DNA of 64,000 bases from a virus. The position numbers and the translations under genes were made by a program. The DNA lies in IMG/VR virus record IMGVR_UViG_3300046812_000216, positions 3,738-67,737 of that record; one strand, written 5' to 3'. The notes under the pieces were generated by a model. That model was not told where the DNA came from. It saw only the letters and a list, made by a program, of their open reading frames with translations, and searched no databases. Shown piece after piece: positions 2,409 to 27,576 of this stretch; the stretch's first letter is position 1, and each line of letters opens with the position of its first letter.

Positions 2409-5400
2409 ATGGGTGGCAAGACTCAGCAATCATCTTCGCAAGTCTCGATACCTCCTGAAGTGCTCGCTCGCTATAATAGCGTCAACGCTCAAGCTCAAAA
2501 TGTCGCTGCGACGCCGTTCCAGCAATATTCGTCAGATCCGAATGCTTTTGTCGCGCCGCTCACCACCGCGCAGCAGGCTGGCATCCAGCAGACGGGCCAG
2601 TACGCCAACGCCGCGCAGCCATGGCTCCAGCAGGCCGGAAACATGACGATGGCGGGGTCCGGGGCCGCGACGCCGGGCGCGCTCGGCGCTGACCAGATCA
2701 ACCAGTATATGTCGCCATACACAGCAGGCGTCACCAACCAGATGACGCAATTGATGAACCAGCAGGCCCAGACCGCGCAATCGGGTCAGATGGGCAACGC
2801 CATCAAGAGCGGAGCTTTCGGCGGCGACCGCGCTGGCGTGGCGGCGGCCAACCTTCAGGGCCAGAATGCGCTCGCCTACGGCAACGCTATGGCTCCGGTT
2901 TTGCAACAAGGTTATAACACCGCGCTCCAAACCGCAGGCCAGCAGCAGCAACTCGATTATGCGTCTCAGCAGGCCAACCTACAGCGCCAGATGGCGGGCG
3001 GCCAGCAGATGGCTGGCCTAGGCATGAACGCCCAGCAGGCGGGCCTCGCAGGCGCGCAGGCGATGATGGGCGCGGGTCAGATGCAGCAGCAGACCCAGCA
3101 GGCGGGCCAGAGCGCGCTCTACAACCAATATCAGCAGCAGCAGAGCTATCCCTTCCAAGTGATGTCGTTCCTAGCGAACATCGCGGAGGGGACCGGCGCG
3201 CTGTCGGGACAAACAACGAACACAACCCAGCCCGCGCCGTTCTTCTCCGACCGGCGCCTGAAGGAGAACGTCAAGAAGATCGGCACCGCCAAGAACGGCC
3301 TGCCGATTCATTCCTTCAACTACAAGGACGATCCGGACAAGCTCACCCGGCTCGGCTTCATGGCCGACGAGGTCGAGAAGAAGCACCCGGAGGCGGTGGG
3401 CCTCGCTGGCGGCTACAAGACGGTCGATTACAAGCGCGCGGCCAGATCTTACGGCGGCGGCCTTGTCCCCATCGAATCTTCCGGCGGCAGCGTCACCGAC
3501 TTCGATCAGGGCGCGGCCTATGATCGCGGCGGATATGGCGACGGCGGAGGTCCGAATATTCAGGATTTGCTCAAGCAGCAGTCCCAGTCATATGCCCCGA
3601 TTACCGGAGGCGAAGAGCGTGACGTGACCGCAGGCCTGCCCGGCAAAGCCAAGAAGGGGCTCGCCGCCGCGTCACAAGGCCAACCGCGTCAGCCGCTGAA
3701 GCCAGCACAGGCGCCGGGTCAGCAGCCAAGCGCCCTGTCACAGGTTTCTCAACTCGGCCAGCAGGCCAAGAGCCTAGTCGATACCGGCCAGAAGGGTTGG
3801 GCTGGCGCGCAGGCTCTCAACAAGAACTTGTCGCAAGACACGGCGCCACAGAAAGATGCTCCTGTCACCCCAGCCGCTCCGCCTTCGCAGGATGTTCCCA
3901 CTGCTGCGCCGCCCGCGCCCATTGTGAATCCAGACACGCCAGCGCCAGAGCTTGACAACGCGCGCGGCGGTCTGATCCCGCGCCACGGCTACGCCACCGA
4001 TGGCGAAGTCCAGCCGTCCGGCGTCCCGGCAATGGTGCAGACTTCCGTCCCGTCGAACCTGTTGGCTGAGACGAAGGAATATCAGCAGGGCCGCGACGAG
4101 GCCCAGCAGGCGCAAGTCCGCGCCAACAATGTGCAGGACCAGCAGCGCGCCAACCTCGCCTCGGCAGGCATCAGCGCCACGCCGGACATGACGCCCTTCG
4201 GCCAGATGATGGCGGCGCGCGGCTTGCAGAATTCAGCAAAGGTCTACGGCGCGCCCGGCGGCTATTACGACCCGACCAATGGCGGCTCGATGTTTGGCAG
4301 TCGCGGCGGCCTGATGGGCCGCAGCCATTTCGAAAGCGGCGGCGACGCTCCCTACGAGGGCGACACCGGCCCCGGCGGGCTCGACATCCCGGTCGATCAA
4401 AGCTGGCGCGAAGACAAAAAAGAAGAAGACGCCATGGCGCCCAAGCCTCCGCCCAGCAGCGGCGGCAGCGGAGCCAGCGATGCGCTTGGCGCGATCAAGG
4501 GAATCGCCGGACTCGCGACGATGTTTCTCGGCACTGGCGGCCTCGCTGGCCGCCGCAGGCGCGAGGACGGAGGCGAACTTAAATCCGATCTTCCCGGCCT
4601 GCCGCCAGATGAAGGCGGCCCTCCCGATTCTGTGGCGGCTCCGGCGGCTCCGCAGAATTCCGGAACGCCAGAGCGTAGCTGGTGGGATAATCTGTGGGGC
4701 GGCGGCGATCTTAAATACATTCCCCCAGCAGAGCAGCATGCTCCCAACGATGATCTTGACCCGCGCGGACCCGGTGGCGCATGGGCGCCATATGGCGCAA
4801 AAGAAACCCCTGCGCCATTGCCTCCGCCGCGTCCGGCCGGGCTGGTCGCCGCCCAGCCCCATGAACGCGCTGTCGCCACGGATATGCCTGAGCGCCAGCA
4901 CAAGGCGACTGGTGTGGCTCCGCGCGAGGCGCAGGCCAGAGCAGAACAACCGAGAGGACGCCAGCCCATCATGATGATGGCGGCGCCGGAAGGTGGAGAA
5001 AAACTCCAGCCCGGTTATCACGGCGACTTTTTTGAAAACTGGGGCCGCGCCGATGGCGGCCGGATCTATCGCGATGACGGCGGCGCCCTTCAGTCGGATC
5101 TTCCCGGCCTCCCGGAGGACGAGGGAGGCCCGCCAGCGCCCAAGGAGCCAGTCTCTGAGCCTGAGCGCCCCAACCTTAGAGATGCGCCTCTGCCGCCCGT
5201 TAAACCCGCTGGTCTGGTTCATACAGGCATGGGCAATGGCCCCTTCCAAGATGTCGATTCCGAAGGGAATGTGATCGACAACAAAAATCTTCCTGAAAGC
5301 CCGCGCGCGCCGCCGGTTCGCCCGAAGACGCTTGCCCAAGCCGCTTCCGCGCATCCGAATCCGCGCGAATTCACGGCCGAGACTTCCTCTGCTGGCGAGG

Positions 5401-19598: not shown

Positions 19599-20119
19599 TC
19601 GACAGTGACGGTGACGGCCTCCTTGCCTTTCAATTCTGCGATGTGGGGGAAACCCTTGACGGCGGCGTCGTAGACGCTCTTGAGGTGATCGTGGCCGGAC
19701 TCGAACCAATTGACGCGGTCTTCCGGGAACTTGATTTCTCTTTTCTTGAAATCCTCGAAAGCGTCGAGGACGATCTTGTAAGAGTCGGCGGCCAGACCAA
19801 AAATCGCGCCGACATCGGACATCATCGGCAGGGCGCCGTCATGTTCTTCCTTGATGCTTTCCAGCGTCTCGATGTAGGAGTTTTTGGCGGCGATGTTGTC
19901 GAGCACCGCCTTGCCATATTCGACAAAGATCATGAGATCGCCATCGAGCTTGTCGCTGTTCTTGCTTGTGAGGTAAGTCTCGATCTTGACCTCAAGGGCG
20001 GCGATCTTCTCCATGCAGGCGATTTCTTTCTCGCAGCAGGAAATAAGCTCCGAGACACAGAGCCCCAGCAGCAGGCAATCGGAAATCACGTTTTTATGGA
20101 GGGCCATGGTTTTTTGCAT
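19595..20119 (-). CDS. Hypothetical protein
   Basis: 174 aa helical ORF. Confidence 0.6.
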   Translation of the reverse strand: MQKTMALHKNVISDCLLLGLCVSELISCCEKEIACMEKIAALEVKIETYLTSKNSDKLDGDLMIFVEYGKAVLDNIAAKNSYIETLESIKEEHDGALPMMSDVGAIFGLAADSYKIVLDAFEDFKKREIKFPEDRVNWFESGHDHLKSVYDAAVKGFPHIAELKGKEAVTVTVE

Positions 20120-20197
20120 TTCGTTCGTCCGTTCTTGGTGGTGAGGCCCGCATCTTCGGGCTGATTCGGGCCTCGTGTCAACAATGAAAAGCGAAAA

Positions 20198-20704
20198 TTA
20201 TTCGCCTTCCGAGATTTCGCGAATGTTCTGGATGGCGTCGCGAATTTTGGTCATTTTCGCCGTGTTTCTGGTTTTCTCCGATACCGGCGCGATGCGAAGC
20301 AAAAGAGCCACCGAATGCTCCAGATCGGCGATTTTCGAGAAAAACTCGCGAAGCGCAAGGTCAAACTGGTCCGGCTGGCCGATAAGCCTGACGGTGGGCG
20401 TGTAGACCGGATCTGAGGTTTCCGTGCGCGGAACGTGCGTCCACGCCTGAATTTCAACCGGATCTCCCTTGGCGTCATTGCAGACGACCGTGACCTGTCT
20501 GATCAGGCTCCGCGCCTGATGGACGCGGTGGGCCTCGCCCGCGACCGCATCGTCCCACTCGAAAGCCGGGTGGAGGACGGCGCCTTCCGGCCGGGATTCA
20601 TTCACGACATCTTTTGCGTGAAGGCCGCCTTTCTCTTCGTCGATGCGCTCAAGCTCCGTCTGGATCTTTTCGACCTCGACGCCTGCGATTGTCCGTTTAG
20701 TCAT
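20198..20704 (-). CDS. Conserved phage protein immediately downstream of the GGY-NN array (candidate accessory/effector)
   Basis: RBS GGAGA between the array end and the start codon; motif GLHAKDVVNESR...LHPAFEWDDAVAGEAHRVHQARSLIR. Confidence 0.75.
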   Translation of the reverse strand: MTKRTIAGVEVEKIQTELERIDEEKGGLHAKDVVNESRPEGAVLHPAFEWDDAVAGEAHRVHQARSLIRQVTVVCNDAKGDPVEIQAWTHVPRTETSDPVYTPTVRLIGQPDQFDLALREFFSKIADLEHSVALLLRIAPVSEKTRNTAKMTKIRDAIQNIREISEGE

Positions 20705-20724
20705 TTACTTTCTCCATGTTAATT

Positions 20725-22015
20725 GCCTGCCTTGCCAGACCGGGCGGAACCCCGCCTAGCCTTGCCGCGCCTTGCCTGCCGCGCCTTACCCCACCGCGCC
20801 TTGCCCCTCCAAACACTGCCGCGCCCTGCCTGCCTCGCCGAGCCCCGCCGCACCTGACCGGGCCTCGCCTGCCTTGCCCGGCCGAGCCGCGCGGCGCCGC
20901 GCCACGTATCGCCATGCCTGCCTTGCCTTGCCGCACCCAACCGTGCGCCGCCAAGCCTAGCGCTGCCTGCCTTGCCTATCCGCGCCAAGCCTTGCCTTGC
21001 CCGACCCAGCCTTGCCGAGCCTCGCCTGCCTGCCTTGCCGGGCCGTGCCATTCCTAGCCGGACCCCGCCTTGCCTGCCGCGCCCGGCCTGACCATGCCTT
21101 GCCATGCCGGGCCACACCACGCCTGCCGCGCCCCGCCTAGCCCCGCCTTGCCTAGACGTGCCTTGCCTCGCCGTGCCTGCCTTGCCTTGCCTTGCCGGGC
21201 CAGTCCTCGCCCCGCCTCGCCTTGCCACGCCTGCCTCGCCCCGCCAGACCGAGCCGCGCCCAGATCTGCCGCGCCGCGCCTGCCACGCCATGCCTAACCG
21301 TGCCGCGCCGAAACAAGCCATGCCATGCCTGCCGCGCCTCTCCATGCCAAGCCGCTCCCGGCCCGACCTTGCCTCGCCTGCCTCGCCGCGCCTCGCCACG
21401 CCTTGCCTCGCCACGCCTTGCCTGCCTTGCCTCGCCAGACCCCGCCCAGCCCTGCGTCGCCGCGCCAGCCGTTGCCTCGCCCCGCCTGCCTCGCCGAGCC
21501 GATCCGAGCCGAGCCCTGCCTTGCCAGACCGAGCCTGCCGAGCCAAGCCTGACCCTGCCCAGCCGTGCCTAGTCATGCCTGCCGTGCCGCGCCCCGCCTC
21601 GCCTCGCCGCTCCTTGCCTGCGTTGCCTGACCATACCCGGCCTTGCCACGCCGTGCCGTGCCTGCCGAGCCTTGCCGTGCCGCGCCGTACCCCGCCGCGC
21701 CAGTCCAGACCGGGACGGACCCAGCCTTGCCTTGCCTTGCCGCGCCTGCCGTGCCTGACCGTGACCAGCCTTGCCTTGCCTCGCCGCGCCTGCCGTGCCG
21801 TGCTATGCCGGGCCTCGCCATACCGAGCCGAGCCGCGCCACGCGCTGCCTGCCTTGCCCTGCCTGACCTGACCTAGCCACGCCTGACCGGACCAAGCCTT
21901 GCCCCGCCTGCCCTGCCCTGCCCCGCCGCGCCTTGCCTAGCCTAGCCGTGCCGGGCCTTGCCTGCCGTGCCACACCTTGCCGAGTCGCGCCGAGCCCAGC
22001 GTTGCCACGCCTGCG
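20725..22015 (-). ncRNA. Array of 25 GGY-NN pentamer units separated by GGCAGGC (candidate guide-RNA array, not a CRISPR)
   Basis: GCCTGC(C/G) separators on + start at 20725, 20774, 20828, 20867, 20916, 20965, 21024/21028, 21072, 21121, 21175, 21229, 21278, 21327, 21376, 21420, 21484, 21533, 21577, 21616, 21660, 21744, 21788, 21847, 21906, 21960, 22009. All unit lengths are 39/44/49/54/59/64/84, i.e. 5n+4. Confidence 0.85.
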
Positions 22016-22020
22016 GCGTT

Positions 22021-22048
22021 ATTGGCGCAGAGAGAACCCTACGCCAAT
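22021..22048 (-). promoter_or_regulatory. Leader hairpin between the RAMP-like gene and the array
   Basis: Minus-strand RNA AUUGGCGUAGGG-UUCU-CUCUGCGCCAAU forms a 12 bp stem; its two G-U pairs form only on the minus strand. Confidence 0.65.
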
Positions 22049-22056
22049 CTCTTGAT

Positions 22057-22686
22057 TTAGTTGACGATTTCGAAGGTTCCCCAGCCAAGACCGGCTGATT
22101 CTCGGCTGTCAGGACGACCTTCGCCAACGCCAACCTGTAACCCTGCTCTCAACAACAGATTGGTCACATCTGTCGCTGAAAACTGATCTGCATCAAACTT
22201 GACCTTGAGCGTCAGTCCCCACTCGCGCCACATCGGCCGGACGCGAACATCGGTCACGCCGGAGCTATTGCGGGCGTGCATTTTCAGCATTTCAGGCGCG
22301 CCGACATTGAGGCGCACCAGCGGAATTCCATCAACCCGATCCAGCCCATCGGCCAGAACAAAAACAGACATTTTTGCGACAGTCATCCGGAACCCAACCA
22401 GACGGCAGGCGCTGATCATCGCATTTCTAAATGCTGCGCAAGGAATTCCGATCCAGCCTTCGGTGCTGTAGTGGATGGCGCCGTCCATATCGGCGCTGAA
22501 GTTTCGCGGCTCGCGGATCTTCTTGGAGCGGGCGGTGGTGCCTTCCAGCATTTTGCCTTCCATCGCCTGCCGGGCCTTTTCGCTGAAGCGGGCCTGAACC
22601 AGAGGAGCAGTGCCGGAGAGCAGGAATTCGAGCGTCTGCACATTCGGCGCGGTGATGGCGACAACGGTCTTGATAGGAGCTTTCAT
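22057..22686 (-). CDS. Stand-alone Cas7/RAMP-like RNA-binding protein
   Basis: N-terminal strand LEFLLSGTAPLV; GIPCAAFRNAMISA (cf. the RAMP IPGSSLKGA helix); C-terminal Gly-rich loop AGLQVGVGEGRP...GLGWGTFEI. No other cas genes nearby. Confidence 0.75.
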   Translation of the reverse strand: MKAPIKTVVAITAPNVQTLEFLLSGTAPLVQARFSEKARQAMEGKMLEGTTARSKKIREPRNFSADMDGAIHYSTEGWIGIPCAAFRNAMISACRLVGFRMTVAKMSVFVLADGLDRVDGIPLVRLNVGAPEMLKMHARNSSGVTDVRVRPMWREWGLTLKVKFDADQFSATDVTNLLLRAGLQVGVGEGRPDSRESAGLGWGTFEIVN

Positions 22687-22739
22687 TTCGTTCGTTCTTT
22701 CTTTCGTTTGCGGGGGACGTTTTCCCCTCGACAATTTGC

Positions 22740-22767
22740 ACCATATCGTGTTTGATGGGTTCGTCAA
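22740..22767 (-). promoter_or_regulatory. Candidate promoter for the RAMP-array operon
   Basis: TTGACG-N16-TATGGT on the minus strand in a divergent intergenic gap. Confidence 0.4.
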
Positions 22768-22782
22768 GCACTAAAGGAGTTG

Positions 22783-22962
22783 ATGATGGCTAAAAATAAA
22801 TCCCCAAAGACTGAAGTGGTGAAGATGATCGCTTTTTCCATCCGGCTGCGGCCGGAGGTCGCCGTCAGGCTGCATCGACTGGCGGATAATGAAGAGCGAT
22901 CTGTCGCGTATATGGTCGGCAAGGCGGTCGATATGCTGCTGGCGGAGCGCGCCCGTGGATAA
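22783..22962 (+). CDS. Ribbon-helix-helix (Arc/CopG-like) regulator
   Basis: AFSIRLRPEVAVRLHRLADNEERSVAYMVGKAV; RBS AAGGAG; divergent from the RAMP-like gene. Confidence 0.75.
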   Translation: MMAKNKSPKTEVVKMIAFSIRLRPEVAVRLHRLADNEERSVAYMVGKAVDMLLAERARG

Positions 22963-23548
22963 GGCCAGCAAGAAGGAAAGGCGCGCCCAGCGAGAGGTCG
23001 AGCTTTCGGGCAAGATCCTCGCCCTGCCCGACAAACGCTATGGCGTGATCTATGCCGATCCTCCATGGCGGTTCGAGACATGGTCGGAAAACGGCATGGA
23101 TCGGTCGGCCGAGAACCATTATCCATGCATGAGCCTCGACGCCATCGCCAATATGCCGGTGCCGAAGATCATGGCTAGGGACTGCGCCCTGTTCATGTGG
23201 GCGACTGTCCCGATGCTGGTGAGCGCGCTCAACGTCATGCATTTATGGGGATTCACCTATAAGAGCCATGCGATCTGGGTGAAGCCAAACGCCATCACCG
23301 GCTATTGGTTCAGGAATCGGCACGAATTGCTGCTGGTCGGCACGCGCGGCCAGATCCCGGCGCCAGCGCTGGGGACGCAATTCGAATCGGTGTTTCTGGC
23401 GCCGACCAGCGTCCACAGCGCCAAGCCGGAAAAGGCGGCGCAGATGATCGAGCATTATTATCCCAACATTCCAAAAGTTGAATTGTTTTGCCGTGGTGCG
23501 CCGCGTCCCGGCTGGTCTGGCTGGGGTCAGGAGTGCGAAGGTGAATAA
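22955..23548 (+). CDS. MT-A70 family N6-adenine methyltransferase
   Basis: YGVIYADPPW, HYPCM, LFMWAT, GYWFRNRHELLLVGTRG, HSAKP, VELFCRG. Confidence 0.92.
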   Translation: MDKASKKERRAQREVELSGKILALPDKRYGVIYADPPWRFETWSENGMDRSAENHYPCMSLDAIANMPVPKIMARDCALFMWATVPMLVSALNVMHLWGFTYKSHAIWVKPNAITGYWFRNRHELLLVGTRGQIPAPALGTQFESVFLAPTSVHSAKPEKAAQMIEHYYPNIPKVELFCRGAPRPGWSGWGQECEGE

Positions 23549-23551
23549 TAA

Positions 23552-23612
23552 GGCAGGCTTGGCAAGGCGTGGCACGGTGTAGCAAGGCCCGGCAGGGTTT
23601 GGCATGGCAGGC
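23552..23612 (+). ncRNA. Solo complete GGY-NN unit flanked by GGCAGGC at both ends (candidate guide RNA)
   Basis: ggca ggcTT ggcAA ggcGT ggcAC ggtGT agcAA ggcCC ggcAG ggtTT ggcAT ggcaggc. Separator spacing is 54 = 5x10+4, the same grammar as the main array. Confidence 0.8.
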
Positions 23613-23646
23613 ATGGAAGGGAATCAAGATGGATAGGAGATTTGAA

Positions 23647-23856
23647 ATGCCGGGCGACGACGAAGAAGACCTCAAAATGATGCCGATCAGTGTAAATTTT
23701 GTGCTGCCGGTCGGCATGATTCGCGCCATCGAGGGCGCGGCGCGCGCCGAAAACCTCGCCCCTGCCGACTGGATCGTTCAGGTCATGTCGGAGAAACTCG
23801 GCTTCACAGTATTTTTCAACCCGCCGGAAGCGCCACCCCGCAACGAGCTTAACTGA
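23647..23856 (+). CDS. Small RHH-like protein
   Basis: RBS AGGAGA; beta-alpha-alpha pattern ISVNFVLPVGMIRAIEGAARAENLAPADWIVQVMSEKL. Confidence 0.55.
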   Translation: MPGDDEEDLKMMPISVNFVLPVGMIRAIEGAARAENLAPADWIVQVMSEKLGFTVFFNPPEAPPRNELN

Positions 23857-23868
23857 AGGAACGCACGC

Positions 23869-24384
23869 ATGGCTTATTACATCGGCATCGATCCCGGCAT
23901 CCACGGGGCCATCGCCATCCTCGATTCGCAGGGCAGGCTCATGCACGTCGAGGACATCCCCATCCTGTCGGACGGCGCCAAGAGCCGCTCGACCATCAAC
24001 GCGCCGCTGCTGGTCGATCTGATTCGCAAGACATACGCCGTCGAGGCTTACGTCGAACTGGTGGGCGTCCGGCCGGGCGAGGGCGCAGTCGGCGCTTTCG
24101 CCTTCGGCCGGTGCCGGGGCGTGATCGAGGGCGCGCTGGCGGGCTGCGGCATCCCGATGACGCTGATCGCGCCGCCGACGTGGAAAAAGATCTGCGGCAT
24201 CCCGGCGGGCAAGCTTGGCGCGAAGGATGCGGCGCGCAGCAAGGCCATCGGCCGCTGGCCGGACAAGGCGCCGGACTTCAAGCGGGTCAAAGACGCCGAC
24301 CGGGCCGAAGCGGCGCTGATCGCCTACGCCGGTCTGGTGCGCTTCGGCAAGCTGGAGAAGGTGAGCGCCGACGACGACTTCTGA
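23869..24384 (+). CDS. RuvC-like Holliday junction resolvase
   Basis: YIGIDPGIHGAIA, AYVE, AFAFG, PPTWKK, DRAEAALIA. Confidence 0.88.
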   Translation: MAYYIGIDPGIHGAIAILDSQGRLMHVEDIPILSDGAKSRSTINAPLLVDLIRKTYAVEAYVELVGVRPGEGAVGAFAFGRCRGVIEGALAGCGIPMTLIAPPTWKKICGIPAGKLGAKDAARSKAIGRWPDKAPDFKRVKDADRAEAALIAYAGLVRFGKLEKVSADDDF

Positions 24385-24448
24385 GTCTTAAAAAGTCGAT
24401 TGAGTTTTTTAGACTCAATTAAAATCAAGTAAGAACGGACGAACGGAC

Positions 24449-25012
24449 ATGACGATGGCGCTCAATATCGAAAAAGTGAAAAAAATCCTCCGCCTGCTGG
24501 AAAGCCAGCATGACGGCGAGCGCGCCAACGCCGCCGCCATGCTCCACCGCATCGCGGAGGCCGAGCGGATGAACCTCGATGAGTTGATGAGGATCGTCTA
24601 CAGCGGCGGCCCGCAGGCGAAAGAGGCTCCCAAGCCTAAGTCCAGCGGGTTCTGGGGCGGAGATCCGCCGCCGTGGGAGCGCGACGCGCGCGAAGAAACC
24701 CATCGCCGCAGGCAAAGAGAGCAGGAAAGGGAAGAGCGCGAGCGCCGCGAGCGCGAGGCCCAGCCAATGTGGCAAGACGCCAAAACCAAGTCGGGGATCG
24801 CCTTCGCCGCGATGGGCGACGACGAGCTTCTGAAGACGATGAAGCGCTTTCATGAAGAGATTGGCGAGTCGATGCTGACGCCGTGGGAGCGCGAATTCAC
24901 CACCGACATCACCAACCGGAAATTCGCTTTCCTTAACCTGAGCGACAAGCAGCGCGCGGTGATTTTGCGCATCCTCAAAAAGTATGAGGCTTACGGAAAC
25001 GCGACGTTCTGA
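24449..25012 (+). CDS. Hypothetical protein
   Basis: N-terminal KILRLLESQHDGERANAA; C-terminal LTPWEREF...LSDKQRAVILRI. Confidence 0.65.
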   Translation: MTMALNIEKVKKILRLLESQHDGERANAAAMLHRIAEAERMNLDELMRIVYSGGPQAKEAPKPKSSGFWGGDPPPWERDAREETHRRRQREQEREERERREREAQPMWQDAKTKSGIAFAAMGDDELLKTMKRFHEEIGESMLTPWEREFTTDITNRKFAFLNLSDKQRAVILRILKKYEAYGNATF

Positions 25013-25320: not shown

Positions 25321-27576
25321 ATGAGCTATCCCTTCGGGAAGGTCGATCTGGAATTCGCAGCCGTGTCCAATTACGCGGCCTATTACAAAGAGAAGGGGCT
25401 GGCCCCGATCCCGTCCTTCACCCCGGACGAAGTGGGGTGGATCAAGAACATCGCCGGTCACTGGCAAGCTCCGCCCAACCCGACAAAAACCCAGCTTTCA
25501 TGGAAGCGTCCGGTGCCGAAGTGGCGCGATCTGCCGCCGGTCCTGACGGAAGAAATTTTCCACAAGTGGTTTGGCAAGGGCGGGCTCTATGTCTCGCGCA
25601 AGCACCAGCTTGGACATCTGACATTTCGTTCCGCCGACCGCGTTTTCGTGATCGACCTCGACACCCACAAGACGCCGGAGGCGGCGATCTGGTGGCAGTT
25701 GATGGAGGAGATGCAGCAGAAGGGCGGTGAGCTTGAGGCGCCGGAAATCATTACCGGCGGCGGCGGGCGCCAGCTTCTGTTTCGCGCTCCGCCCGGCTGG
25801 ACGCCGCCGACCAACAAGACGAACTACGGCGTCGATATCAGGGGTAAGGGCGGGTTTGCCGTCCTGCCGCCATCCGTCCACGAATCCGGCCGCCTGTACG
25901 AATGGAAAGACGGACTGGCCCTCGATGACTTCAAGGTCATCCCGGAGGCTCCGGCTTGGCTCTGCGAGCAGATCGACCAGCTTGTCGCCGAATCCGGCGG
26001 AGGTCCGGCGCCGCGCGATCATGTCCACACGGCTACGCCGCACGACGGCGCGGAAAACATCTTCGGCCGCAAGATCGACGGGCGCGAGTGGGAGGCGACC
26101 AAGATCGCCTTCCGCACCGTGGTCAACGCCTATCGCGAATGCCCGATCAGCCCGTCGTTGTCCGAGATCGAGAAGATGGTCAATTCCGGCTTCACGGTCT
26201 ACCTCGACCGCTGCAAGAGCCGCCTGCCGATAGGCGATCCGGGCTCCAACGCCGAGAGGCTGGAGCGCGAGGGTCGCGGCTACACCATGTTCCAGCGCAA
26301 GATCCTCGACCTGATGCCGCGATGGGCCACATTCGTCGCGACAGAGGCCGCGAAGCCCAACCCTTTCGAAGAGGCCTCCCCGAATAAAGATCCGTTCGAG
26401 GAGGCGCGCAAGGAGCAGCAGCAAGAGCAGGAGCCGCCCCAGCAGGCCGCTGGAGGCGATTCGTCGCCACCGCCGCCCCCACCCCCGCCGCCACCGGACG
26501 AGGAGGCGGAATTCTCCGGCGCAGCCCAGCCGAAGCAGGAGGCCAAGAGCAAGATCATGCTCTACGACCTCGACCAGATCGAGGCCATGCGCGACCCGGT
26601 CTATCTGGTCGATGGCGTGATCGCGGAGGACGCCCTTGGATTTGTCTTTGGCGCGCCGGGCTGCGGAAAATCCTTCCTAGCGTTAAGCCTCGCGCTCGCC
26701 ATCGCCTTTGGCATGAAAGAGTGGTTTGGCAAGGGAATCGCCAAGAACGGGCCGGTGGTCTACATTTCGTCAGAAGGCCAGTCCGACATGAAAAACCGCA
26801 TTCGGGCGTGGAAGAAAAAGTTCAAGTTCGACCACAACGACGCCCCCTTCCGCCTCATCATCGCCCCGCTCAATTTCATGCAGCCGGAAGACGTGATCGC
26901 CCTCCAGAAGGCGGTGTCGGCCGCCGTGGCGGGCATGGGCGGCAAGCCGGTGATGTTCGTGGTCGATACCGTGTCGCGCGTCCTGCCGGGCGCCGACGAG
27001 AACCTCCAGAAAGACATGACGCTGTTCGTCCGGGCCTGCGACTTCCTGCGCACCAGCTTCGGCGCGGCGGTGATGGGCGTCCACCACACCTCGCGCAATG
27101 GCAACATGCGCGGCTCCAGCGTGTTCGACGGCGCGGCCGACTTCATGCTCCAGATCGAGCGCGAGAAGCAGGCGCAGATCGGCCTGATGACTGCCGCCAA
27201 GATCAAGACGGCGATGGACGGCTGGGAGCTTGAGTTCGAGCTTGAGCAGATCGAGGTCCGGCCATTGACCGGCGCCACCTCGCTCGTCGCCATCCCGGTC
27301 AGCAAAGATGCGCCTAAAAAGCTGACGCCGGATCTGGCGCGAAAAATCCGGCAGGCGATCCATGACGCATGGCAGATGAAGAACCCGTGGTCGAGCGCGA
27401 TCCAGACCCGCGCCACCGGCCGCTATGCCATCGACCACATGGTCCGCGACTTTGGCCTGCCGGTGGTCGAGGCGGAACAGTTGCTCAAGGACTGGCTCTT
27501 CAACGGCGTTCTCAAGGTCGAAATGGTCAGCATCGACACCAAGCAAAAGGGGCTCAAGGTCATGCTTTGGGACTGA
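25321..27576 (+). CDS. Bifunctional primase-polymerase fused to RecA-like (AAA_25) helicase
   Basis: VFVIDLDTH, TGGGGRQLLFR, VDIRGKGGFAVLPPSVH (Prim-Pol); GAPGCGKS Walker A, FVVDT Walker B, VHHTSR..MRGSS. Confidence 0.92.
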   Translation: MSYPFGKVDLEFAAVSNYAAYYKEKGLAPIPSFTPDEVGWIKNIAGHWQAPPNPTKTQLSWKRPVPKWRDLPPVLTEEIFHKWFGKGGLYVSRKHQLGHLTFRSADRVFVIDLDTHKTPEAAIWWQLMEEMQQKGGELEAPEIITGGGGRQLLFRAPPGWTPPTNKTNYGVDIRGKGGFAVLPPSVHESGRLYEWKDGLALDDFKVIPEAPAWLCEQIDQLVAESGGGPAPRDHVHTATPHDGAENIFGRKIDGREWEATKIAFRTVVNAYRECPISPSLSEIEKMVNSGFTVYLDRCKSRLPIGDPGSNAERLEREGRGYTMFQRKILDLMPRWATFVATEAAKPNPFEEASPNKDPFEEARKEQQQEQEPPQQAAGGDSSPPPPPPPPPPDEEAEFSGAAQPKQEAKSKIMLYDLDQIEAMRDPVYLVDGVIAEDALGFVFGAPGCGKSFLALSLALAIAFGMKEWFGKGIAKNGPVVYISSEGQSDMKNRIRAWKKKFKFDHNDAPFRLIIAPLNFMQPEDVIALQKAVSAAVAGMGGKPVMFVVDTVSRVLPGADENLQKDMTLFVRACDFLRTSFGAAVMGVHHTSRNGNMRGSSVFDGAADFMLQIEREKQAQIGLMTAAKIKTAMDGWELEFELEQIEVRPLTGATSLVAIPVSKDAPKKLTPDLARKIRQAIHDAWQMKNPWSSAIQTRATGRYAIDHMVRDFGLPVVEAEQLLKDWLFNGVLKVEMVSIDTKQKGLKVMLWD

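Follow-up and report, generated by a model that had tools for sequence, protein, structure and literature searches.

A putative solitary RNA guide in a soil phage nearly matches the gene immediately downstream of it, and alleles of that gene in near-identical phages appear to match it better than the resident copy does. The guide unit lies at 23552–23612 (+) of the window, by which is meant the whole 64,000-nucleotide (nt) stretch analysed, positions 3,738 to 67,737 of IMG/VR record IMGVR_UViG_3300046812_000216 (a single viral contig of 67,737 bp, about 61% G+C). It has the make-up of a guide RNA (vrRNA) of the VIPR systems, a relative of which is encoded nearby, and we think it possible, with confidence a little short of even, that it is a solo vrRNA aimed at rival alleles of the adjacent gene, the resident copy being spared by its mismatches and linked to the guide.

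VIPR systems, described only in 2026 and with natural targets known for few clades, comprise phage-borne Vipr RAMP proteins and vrRNAs of 9–16 repeats of a GGY triplet and a dinucleotide (NN) (10.64898/2026.04.26.720920; structural basis in 10.64898/2026.04.26.720927). By an experimentally established 1-nt-skip rule the NNs pair with a DNA target in which every third base, mostly a wobble position, is skipped; both strands are targeted, no protospacer-adjacent motif is needed and the outcome is transcriptional silencing (10.64898/2026.04.26.720920). The skip-1 code that the original prediction had read from the window is real, being this published rule; the solo match does lend the code independent support, as had been claimed, yet the code was already in print.

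The solo unit

The unit consists of two GGCAGGC separators (23552–23558 and 23606–23612; spacing 54 nt, which is 4 mod 5, with 47 nt between them) enclosing ten NNs parted by nine GGY-type triplets. A complete, GGCAGGC-bounded unit near the guide array and on the strand opposite to it had been predicted, and this description holds; its ‘ten pentamers’ are correct as to the ten NNs, although strictly there are nine internal triplets, and the distance to the array, put at 1.5 kb, is about 1.6 kb to the nearest separator (21960–21966). The NNs read TT AA GT AC GT AA CC AG TT AT, and the internal triplets are GGC (six), GGT (two) and AGC (one), so that 8/9 are GGY. In separator spacing (54), number of NNs (10) and GGY conformity the unit matches those of the array, its first NN, TT, being atypical of an array in which 21/22 units start with a purine. 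It fills part of a 98-nt gap, starting 3 nt past the stop codon of a methyltransferase gene and ending 34 nt before the ATG of a 69-amino-acid (aa) gene, and lies 866 nt beyond the start of vipr, on the opposite strand and behind the methyltransferase gene. Runs of at least ten GGYNN units are hardly expected outside the array: two were observed (the solo unit and 1779–1833) against 0.01 expected, and only 2/200 Markov surrogates had any.

The predicted fold of the solo region was no better than that of shuffled sequences (z = −0.24), Rfam gave two sub-threshold matches only, a scan of the 21900–24500 region found neither a promoter nor a terminator near the unit, a protein search with an antisense open reading frame (ORF) running across it (23243–23614, −) returned nothing, and there was no RNA dataset among the listed holders of the stretch. 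From its letters, the unit may well be a stand-alone vrRNA guide of the phage's own VIPR, a reading that predicts its expression, processing, binding by Vipr and silencing activity.

The second run outside the array, at 1779–1833 (−), lies among structural genes as a stand-alone series of 11 GGYNN pentamers and has no GGCAGGC separators. The periodicity itself is real; once decoded, the guide matches nothing in the genome notably well (358/400 shuffles were as good).

The best match in the genome lies in the next gene

Reverse-complemented with one skipped base after each dinucleotide, the solo NNs read AT.AA.CT.GG.TT.AC.GT.AC.TT.AA, and positions 23791–23819 (+), covering codons E49–N58 of the adjacent gene, read GA.AA.CT.GG.TT.AC.GT.TT.TT.AA. 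They agree in 16/20 nt and in 8/10 dinucleotides, of which six (numbers 2–7) follow one another without a break, exactly as originally reported, and the mismatches fall at 23791–92 (GA vs AT) and 23812–13 (TT vs AC). All skipped bases are third codon positions of EKLGFTVFFN in ORF 23647–23856. This near-cognate site is the guide's single best match in the 67.7-kb genome (the next best in the window scores 14), and it depends on the code, since the skip-1 reading gives 16/20 and the skip-0 and skip-2 readings only 14; extension of the guide by the separator's own AG added no match. Guide and site are 179 nt apart; the site falls at the 3′ end of the 69-aa gene, with 50 nt between it and the resolvase gene.

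When the order of the NNs was shuffled and the whole 67,737-bp genome searched, 126/6000 shuffles reached at least 16/20 nt and 2/6000 at least 8/10 dinucleotides, and the number of sites with at least 16/20 expected within ±300 nt was 1.9e-4. Twenty-five guides were tested alike at the nucleotide level, and only the solo guide (6/400 shuffles as good) and the leading guide of the array (0/400) stood out, each with its best match about 200–225 nt away, in an adjacent gene and in codon phase; the other 23 were unremarkable, with best matches 1.2 to 34 kb from the guide. The genome-wide nucleotide-level figure of about 2% alone fails correction, because 25 guides were tested, a correction that the figure for dinucleotides, the position of the site in the adjacent gene and the allele evidence given below withstand. 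The overall pattern of two stand-out guides, each matching an adjacent gene, is not expected by chance.

Alleles differ at a mismatched codon

A collection of 5.8 billion proteins held one cluster for the 69-aa protein, with five distinct sequences. Two of these are the resident allele with differing start calls (15 and 28 contigs), and the other three, P0003, P0004 and P0005 (one contig each), carry F56T, one of them with V19I in addition; these are the only two variable residues in the five-member cluster. Codon 56 of the resident allele (TTT, Phe; 23812–23814, +) is therefore a Thr codon (ACN) in 3/5 distinct sequences, and it holds the guide's mismatched eighth dinucleotide, for which the guide specifies AC. 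All threonine codons are ACN, and threonine is the sole residue whose codons begin with AC. With the other nine residues unchanged, the Thr56 alleles would thus match the guide at 9/10 dinucleotides and 18/20 nt, figures that are derived from proteins and presume no change in the first two bases of the other nine codons. The self-match (16/20) would then be lower than the match to the Thr56 alleles (18/20).

F56T amounts to a two-base change in one codon of otherwise nearly identical genes, and it lands on one of the two mismatched codons among 69; as a rough estimate, reasoned rather than computed as a test, the odds of such a coincidence are a few in a thousand. Position 56 is likely to be tolerant of change, because it follows helix 2 and is Glu in two distant homologues. 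The allele evidence at the guide's mismatch is new here. It supports the earlier suggestion that such a guide is directed at a competing allele of the gene next to it, inasmuch as Thr56 in P0003, P0004 and P0005 is what the guide specifies; the homing that had been offered with that suggestion is not borne out, since a nuclease is not in evidence and the published VIPRs of this kind act by silencing, not by cutting. Phe56 (8/10) and Thr56 (9/10) offer a concrete allele pair for measuring the mismatch tolerance and self-avoidance of VIPR.

Natural copies of the locus

Four of the 24 listed holder runs were compared, all as contigs. A 15,976-nt contig from run X4 showed 3 differences over 20109–24500, with the solo unit and its site identical, and in run X8 the unit was again identical, with one difference (23703) across 23185–23752. 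A 1692-nt Logan contig from run X12 covered 23384–24500 gap-free with 6 differences. It is probably the T-allele contig of P0005, being equal in length and source to that protein's only contig, and its guide could hold at most three differences, because two make up the codon change and one lies at 23892. In run X24, from soil, a 1964-nt contig aligned to 22163–23467 and 23630–24018 with flanks about 97–98% identical, and about 270 unalignable letters replaced 23468–23629, which comprises the 3′ end of the methyltransferase gene and the solo unit. The solo locus may be an exchangeable cassette.

A parallel case in the array

The leading guide of the array shows a parallel pattern against its own neighbour, vipr. 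Its unit, at 21967–22008 (−), sits behind a degenerate separator, cGCAGGC (to 22015), and its near-self site lies in vipr at 22178–22203 (−), encoding VKFDADQFS, with 16/18 nt and 7/9 dinucleotides matching in codon phase; none of 400 and none of 500 shuffles were as good. The guide decodes to V-T-F/L-D/E-A-D/E-H/Q-F/L-T, against VKFDADQFS in the resident Vipr. At the last position, where the guide says AC, the residue is Thr in 103/120 Vipr relatives and Ser in the resident protein. Compatibility with the guide at 8 of 9 positions was found in 10/120 relatives, and at 9 of 9 in none.

Proposed mechanism and alternatives

Were the solo unit a guide against rival alleles, it would be transcribed in sense with the operon of methyltransferase, ribbon–helix–helix (RHH)-like, resolvase and primase genes and excised at its two GGCAGGC register-shift separators, as the array units would be. 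Vipr protomers would coat it, burying each GGY and presenting the ten NNs, which by the 1-nt-skip rule would specify a 29-bp site in codon phase where the neighbouring RHH-like gene has its 3′ end. The cognate target would be the Thr56 allele of near-identical rival phages (0.90 identity, 9/10) rather than the resident allele (0.80), and in a phage with that allele the Vipr filament would keep transcription from passing on into the genes for resolvase and primase/helicase; a similar transcription-blocking effect has been proposed for guides matching the end of vipr (10.64898/2026.10.15.759431). What would spare the resident copy is two altered bases in a single tolerant codon, along with a terminal mismatch, and guide and spared allele would be inherited together because they are 179 bp apart. 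The transcription, processing and loading of the unit, its ability to tell an 8/10 from a 9/10 match and the resulting silencing are the parts of this scheme that we infer.

A further step, that the linked weapon and immunity form a cassette driving allele exclusion among near-identical phages, is distinctly unlikely in our estimation. Were it true, a Phe56 phage in a mixed infection would silence the replication operon of its Thr56 kin, the kin could escape only by gaining the 179-bp-linked cassette through recombination, and the cassette would spread like a nuclease-free marker-exclusion or gene-drive element; the leading guide beside vipr would be a second such cassette in this genome, and a reciprocal guide may exist in T-allele phages. 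Should the linkage be adaptive, phages would be using RNA-guided silencing against members of their own species as well as against satellites and prophages.

Several observations weigh against an allele-directed guide. The T allele is rare (3 contigs vs 43), and the 3′-terminal NN (AT) is mismatched in every allele seen, for which a possible role of terminal NNs as scaffold or processing signal could account. The genome-wide nucleotide-level probability of about 2% is what the best of 25 guides gives by chance. The N-terminal extension of P0004 (LAWQAW) is the translation of the solo unit's last pentamers and separator, so T-allele phages are not guide-less; together with the gap-free, probable T-allele contig of run X12, this contradicts the expectation that relatives with a sensitive allele would lack the unit. 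The unit's AGC triplet is a further difficulty, given that substitution of GGY by AGY abolished SUSP1 silencing (10.64898/2026.04.26.720920, figure S12 legend), although 24/190 triplets of the array are likewise non-GGY. The accessible part of the VIPR literature yielded no data on mismatch tolerance.

Nor did searches yield a better target. The full ten-dinucleotide pattern had no match in viral_contigs, hence no perfect 10/10 target there; the same database held no match to the nine-dinucleotide pattern with the next codons, and metagenome_contigs none to a pattern derived from the Thr-allele peptide. The nine-dinucleotide pattern (18 fixed bases) found 15 matches in unrelated taxa in genome_contigs against about 17 estimated by chance, and these were judged to be chance matches rather than real targets. 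Four of them, in the GC-rich bacterial assemblies L093, L095, L099 and L100, fall in a single conserved ...AVKLGFTVTFNTNG... gene, encoding ...AVKLGFTVTFNTNGWLL..., in which nine of the guide's ten dinucleotides match. No homologue of the 69-aa gene was found in the relatives' loci examined (tblastn with the homologues described below, 91 loci, nothing below E = 0.4). The window's 24 guides, set against 80 distant loci, gave nothing beyond shuffles, and the smallest p for 83 guides of relatives against this genome was 0.01, which is chance for 83 tests.

Autoregulation, which the original prediction had named as its other option, is unlikely but keeps an appreciable probability. The guide would be meant for the resident gene, its imperfect match letting a Vipr filament throttle the operon from the RHH gene into resolvase and primase; in a variant it would pair in cis with its own mRNA, the leading array guide likewise feeding back on vipr. 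Both near-self guides share a transcription unit with their site and are complementary to the coding strand, hence to the mRNA, and RNA targets can be bound, though binding to single-stranded RNA gave mostly incomplete filaments (10.64898/2026.04.26.720927). The probable T-allele contig of run X12 retains a unit of equal length, and if its NNs are unchanged that phage would have a 9/10 self-match, which favours autoregulation and tells against a guide aimed at rivals. Yet autoregulation leaves the adjacency unexplained, because VIPR acts in trans, and in both guides the mismatches fall where relatives or alleles match, as self-sparing predicts. It also sits poorly with the published methods, according to which no self-hit reached an 80% NN match in the clades analysed (10.64898/2026.04.26.720920), a statement that is qualified in its turn by the two guides described here, which reach 0.80 and 0.89 on their own genome.

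It is rather improbable that the unit is a relic, that is, an array unit translocated or inverted into the neighbouring gap, directed in the past at this gene family and now neither expressed nor loaded. The lack of a sigma-70-like promoter in the scan, the atypical first NN (TT) and the single AGC triplet would suit a relic, as would the replacement of 23468–23629 by about 270 other letters in run X24, which makes the locus dispensable or exchangeable. Against this, both separators are intact, GGY conformity (8/9) compares with 87% in the array, the unit is identical in the X4 and X8 contigs, and no promoter of its own is needed because it lies in sense inside an operon.

That the match is fortuitous, a real guide having its true target elsewhere (an unsampled rival, a satellite or the host), is very improbable: some 2% of shuffled guides reach 16/20 genome-wide with 25 guides looked at, the terminal dinucleotide never matches and the nine-dinucleotide pattern also finds the conserved gene of the four bacterial assemblies, but only 2/6000 shuffles reach 8/10, the site is in codon phase and 179 nt from the guide, the very dinucleotide that the guide specifies is restored by an independent allele polymorphism, and the 15 genome_contigs matches equal the roughly 17 estimated by chance.

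Comparison with known systems

Two other kinds of viral element resemble the proposed arrangement. Archaeal viruses carry mini-CRISPR arrays with a guide against a gene of their kin, their own copy differing at the protospacer, and these mediate interference between related viruses; they differ from VIPR in having another effector and a contiguous pairing code. In the marker exclusion of T-even phages a homing endonuclease, the weapon, lies beside the resistant allele of its own target, and both spread in mixed infections. There a nuclease acts and repair copies the cassette, whereas in the phage studied here no nuclease is seen and transcriptional blocking would be expected.

Among published VIPRs, of which there are seven types (I–VII), the closest in architecture are the ‘staggered arrays’ with 1-nt vrRNA overlaps (figure S18 legend of 10.64898/2026.04.26.720920). 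Like them, this phage has a Vipr RAMP beside tandem GGY/NN repeats with a one-base register shift and a candidate accessory gene after the array; the system is phage-borne, and its sites obey the 1-nt-skip rule in codon phase, though here they are near matches within its own genome. The type II exemplars, SUSP1 and P. fulva, have a conserved 3′ pseudoknot tail (10.64898/2026.04.26.720920), whereas this phage has no tail and only GGCAGGC separators.

Solo or orphan vrRNAs have been described from satellites and from VIPR-null SUSP1-like phages (10.64898/2026.10.15.759431), and the unit at 23552–23612 is a solo vrRNA in that sense, but on a phage with its own vipr. It shares with them the position of a single vrRNA apart from a vipr–vap operon, and some published solos target relatives' genes with a self-match below the match to rivals. 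Their carriers, however, lack vipr and borrow the Vipr of another, whereas here the carrier itself encodes vipr and a 25-separator array. The unit differs further in lying on the opposite strand within a replication-gene operon, in that its near-cognate site, scoring at the published threshold of 0.8, belongs to the gene directly after it in the same genome, and in that the better-matching allele belongs to near-identical phages. In the accessible part of the VIPR literature no statement was found of a guide encoded beside its own near-cognate site.

The VIPR system of the phage

The minus strand between 22686 and 20198 carries, in this order, a 209-aa gene, some 1.3 kb in which GGC/GGT-NN recurs with a strict 5-nt period, and a 168-aa gene. 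The first, vipr (22057–22686), encodes a minimal RAMP, a type built of an RRM core, a glycine-rich loop and a thumb, and by sequence comparison the protein is a relative of Vipr. It matched PDB entry 36pp_D, ‘SUSP1 Vipr protein’, at E = 0.011 (phmmer), and a profile of 25 relatives matched 36pp at E = 6.4e-4, with residues 148–192 against 136–180 in the G-loop region, where GVGDWRP of the phage protein aligns with GIGEGRP of SUSP1 Vipr; the similarity is weak but collinear. The AlphaFold2 (AF2) model of the protein (pLDDT 79) matched Csm3/Cas7 RAMPs at E = 4.6e-5, and the family comprises 4809 proteins at E ≤ 0.001.

The staggered vrRNA array (20725–22015, −) has 25 GGCAGGC separators and 22 regular units of 7–16 NNs besides the leading unit at 21967–22008. 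GGCAGGC amounts to a four-base unit, GGCA, followed by GGC, so that the pentamer register shifts by one at each separator, and 23/24 separator spacings are 4 mod 5. Of the internal triplets 166/190 (87%) are GGY. Unit ends are biased: besides the purine that begins the first NN in 21/22 units, the last NN is AA in 8/22, compared with 15% at inner positions, and terminal NNs may thus be partly scaffold or processing signal. Units adjoin through GGCAGGC, and the conserved structured 3′ tail (a pseudoknot, as in type II) is absent; the architecture is therefore not that of type II and fits a staggered array. The system is accordingly a VIPR relative with a staggered, tail-less array, and an identity as a TRAP-like protein-binding RNA array was dropped in favour of the published VIPR description. 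Directly after the array lies a candidate vap accessory gene (20198–20704, −; 168 aa, phrog_15946, function unknown).

Across 14 related loci examined by tblastn, the product of 20198–20704 was encoded beside vipr in 10 of the 13 that carry vipr. In related IMG/VR loci GGYNN runs flank the pair of vipr and accessory gene and also occur between the two, all on the vipr strand and with identical GGCAGGC separators. Among the natural copies (runs X4, X8, X12 and X24) the array differs by insertions of whole pentamers (X4, for example, has one of 5 nt and one of 10 nt) and by numerous skips and rejoinings on the scale of units, which fits rapid guide turnover. The only sigma-70-like promoter match in the 21900–24500 region lies just upstream of vipr at 22740–22767 (−), facing vipr, array and vap, in a scan whose count did not exceed that of shuffles.

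The putative target gene and its neighbourhood

The 69-aa gene (23647–23856, +; an alternative start at 23629 gives the 75-aa P0001) belongs to no Pfam or PHROG family. The AF2 model of its product (four sequences, pLDDT 79) has an extended segment followed by helices 22–34 and 39–51, and among the Foldseek matches listed nearly all were RHH proteins (Arc, CopG, PutA, AmrZ and the VapB, MazE and ParD antitoxins), with TM scores of up to 0.85 on the target but E values of 0.3–3, none ≤0.001. RHH proteins form dimers and have two helices behind an N-terminal strand; on this model the protein may be called RHH-like. A full HMMER search found four proteins, including two usable distant homologues (55% and 39% identical), and a word-based protein search found its own cluster only. 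No relatives of the gene were confirmed in viral_contigs, metagenome_contigs or genome_contigs, and among GenBank phages blastn gave only a 121-nt resolvase match to Caulobacter phages.

The gene is preceded by the ORF of an MT-A70 DNA methyltransferase (22889–23548, +), which ends, stop codon included, 3 nt short of the solo unit, and is followed by a RuvC-like Holliday junction resolvase gene (23869–24384, +), the first downstream of the target site, and then by a primase/helicase gene (25321–27576). Just upstream of the methyltransferase is a 59-aa ORF with a ribosome-binding site (22783–22962, +), which matched Pfam Antitox_RHH at E = 2.9e-6 (above the cut-off). Because this ORF overlaps the 5′ part of the ORF beginning at 22889, the true start of the methyltransferase may lie further downstream, in which case the operon would contain two small RHH-type genes.

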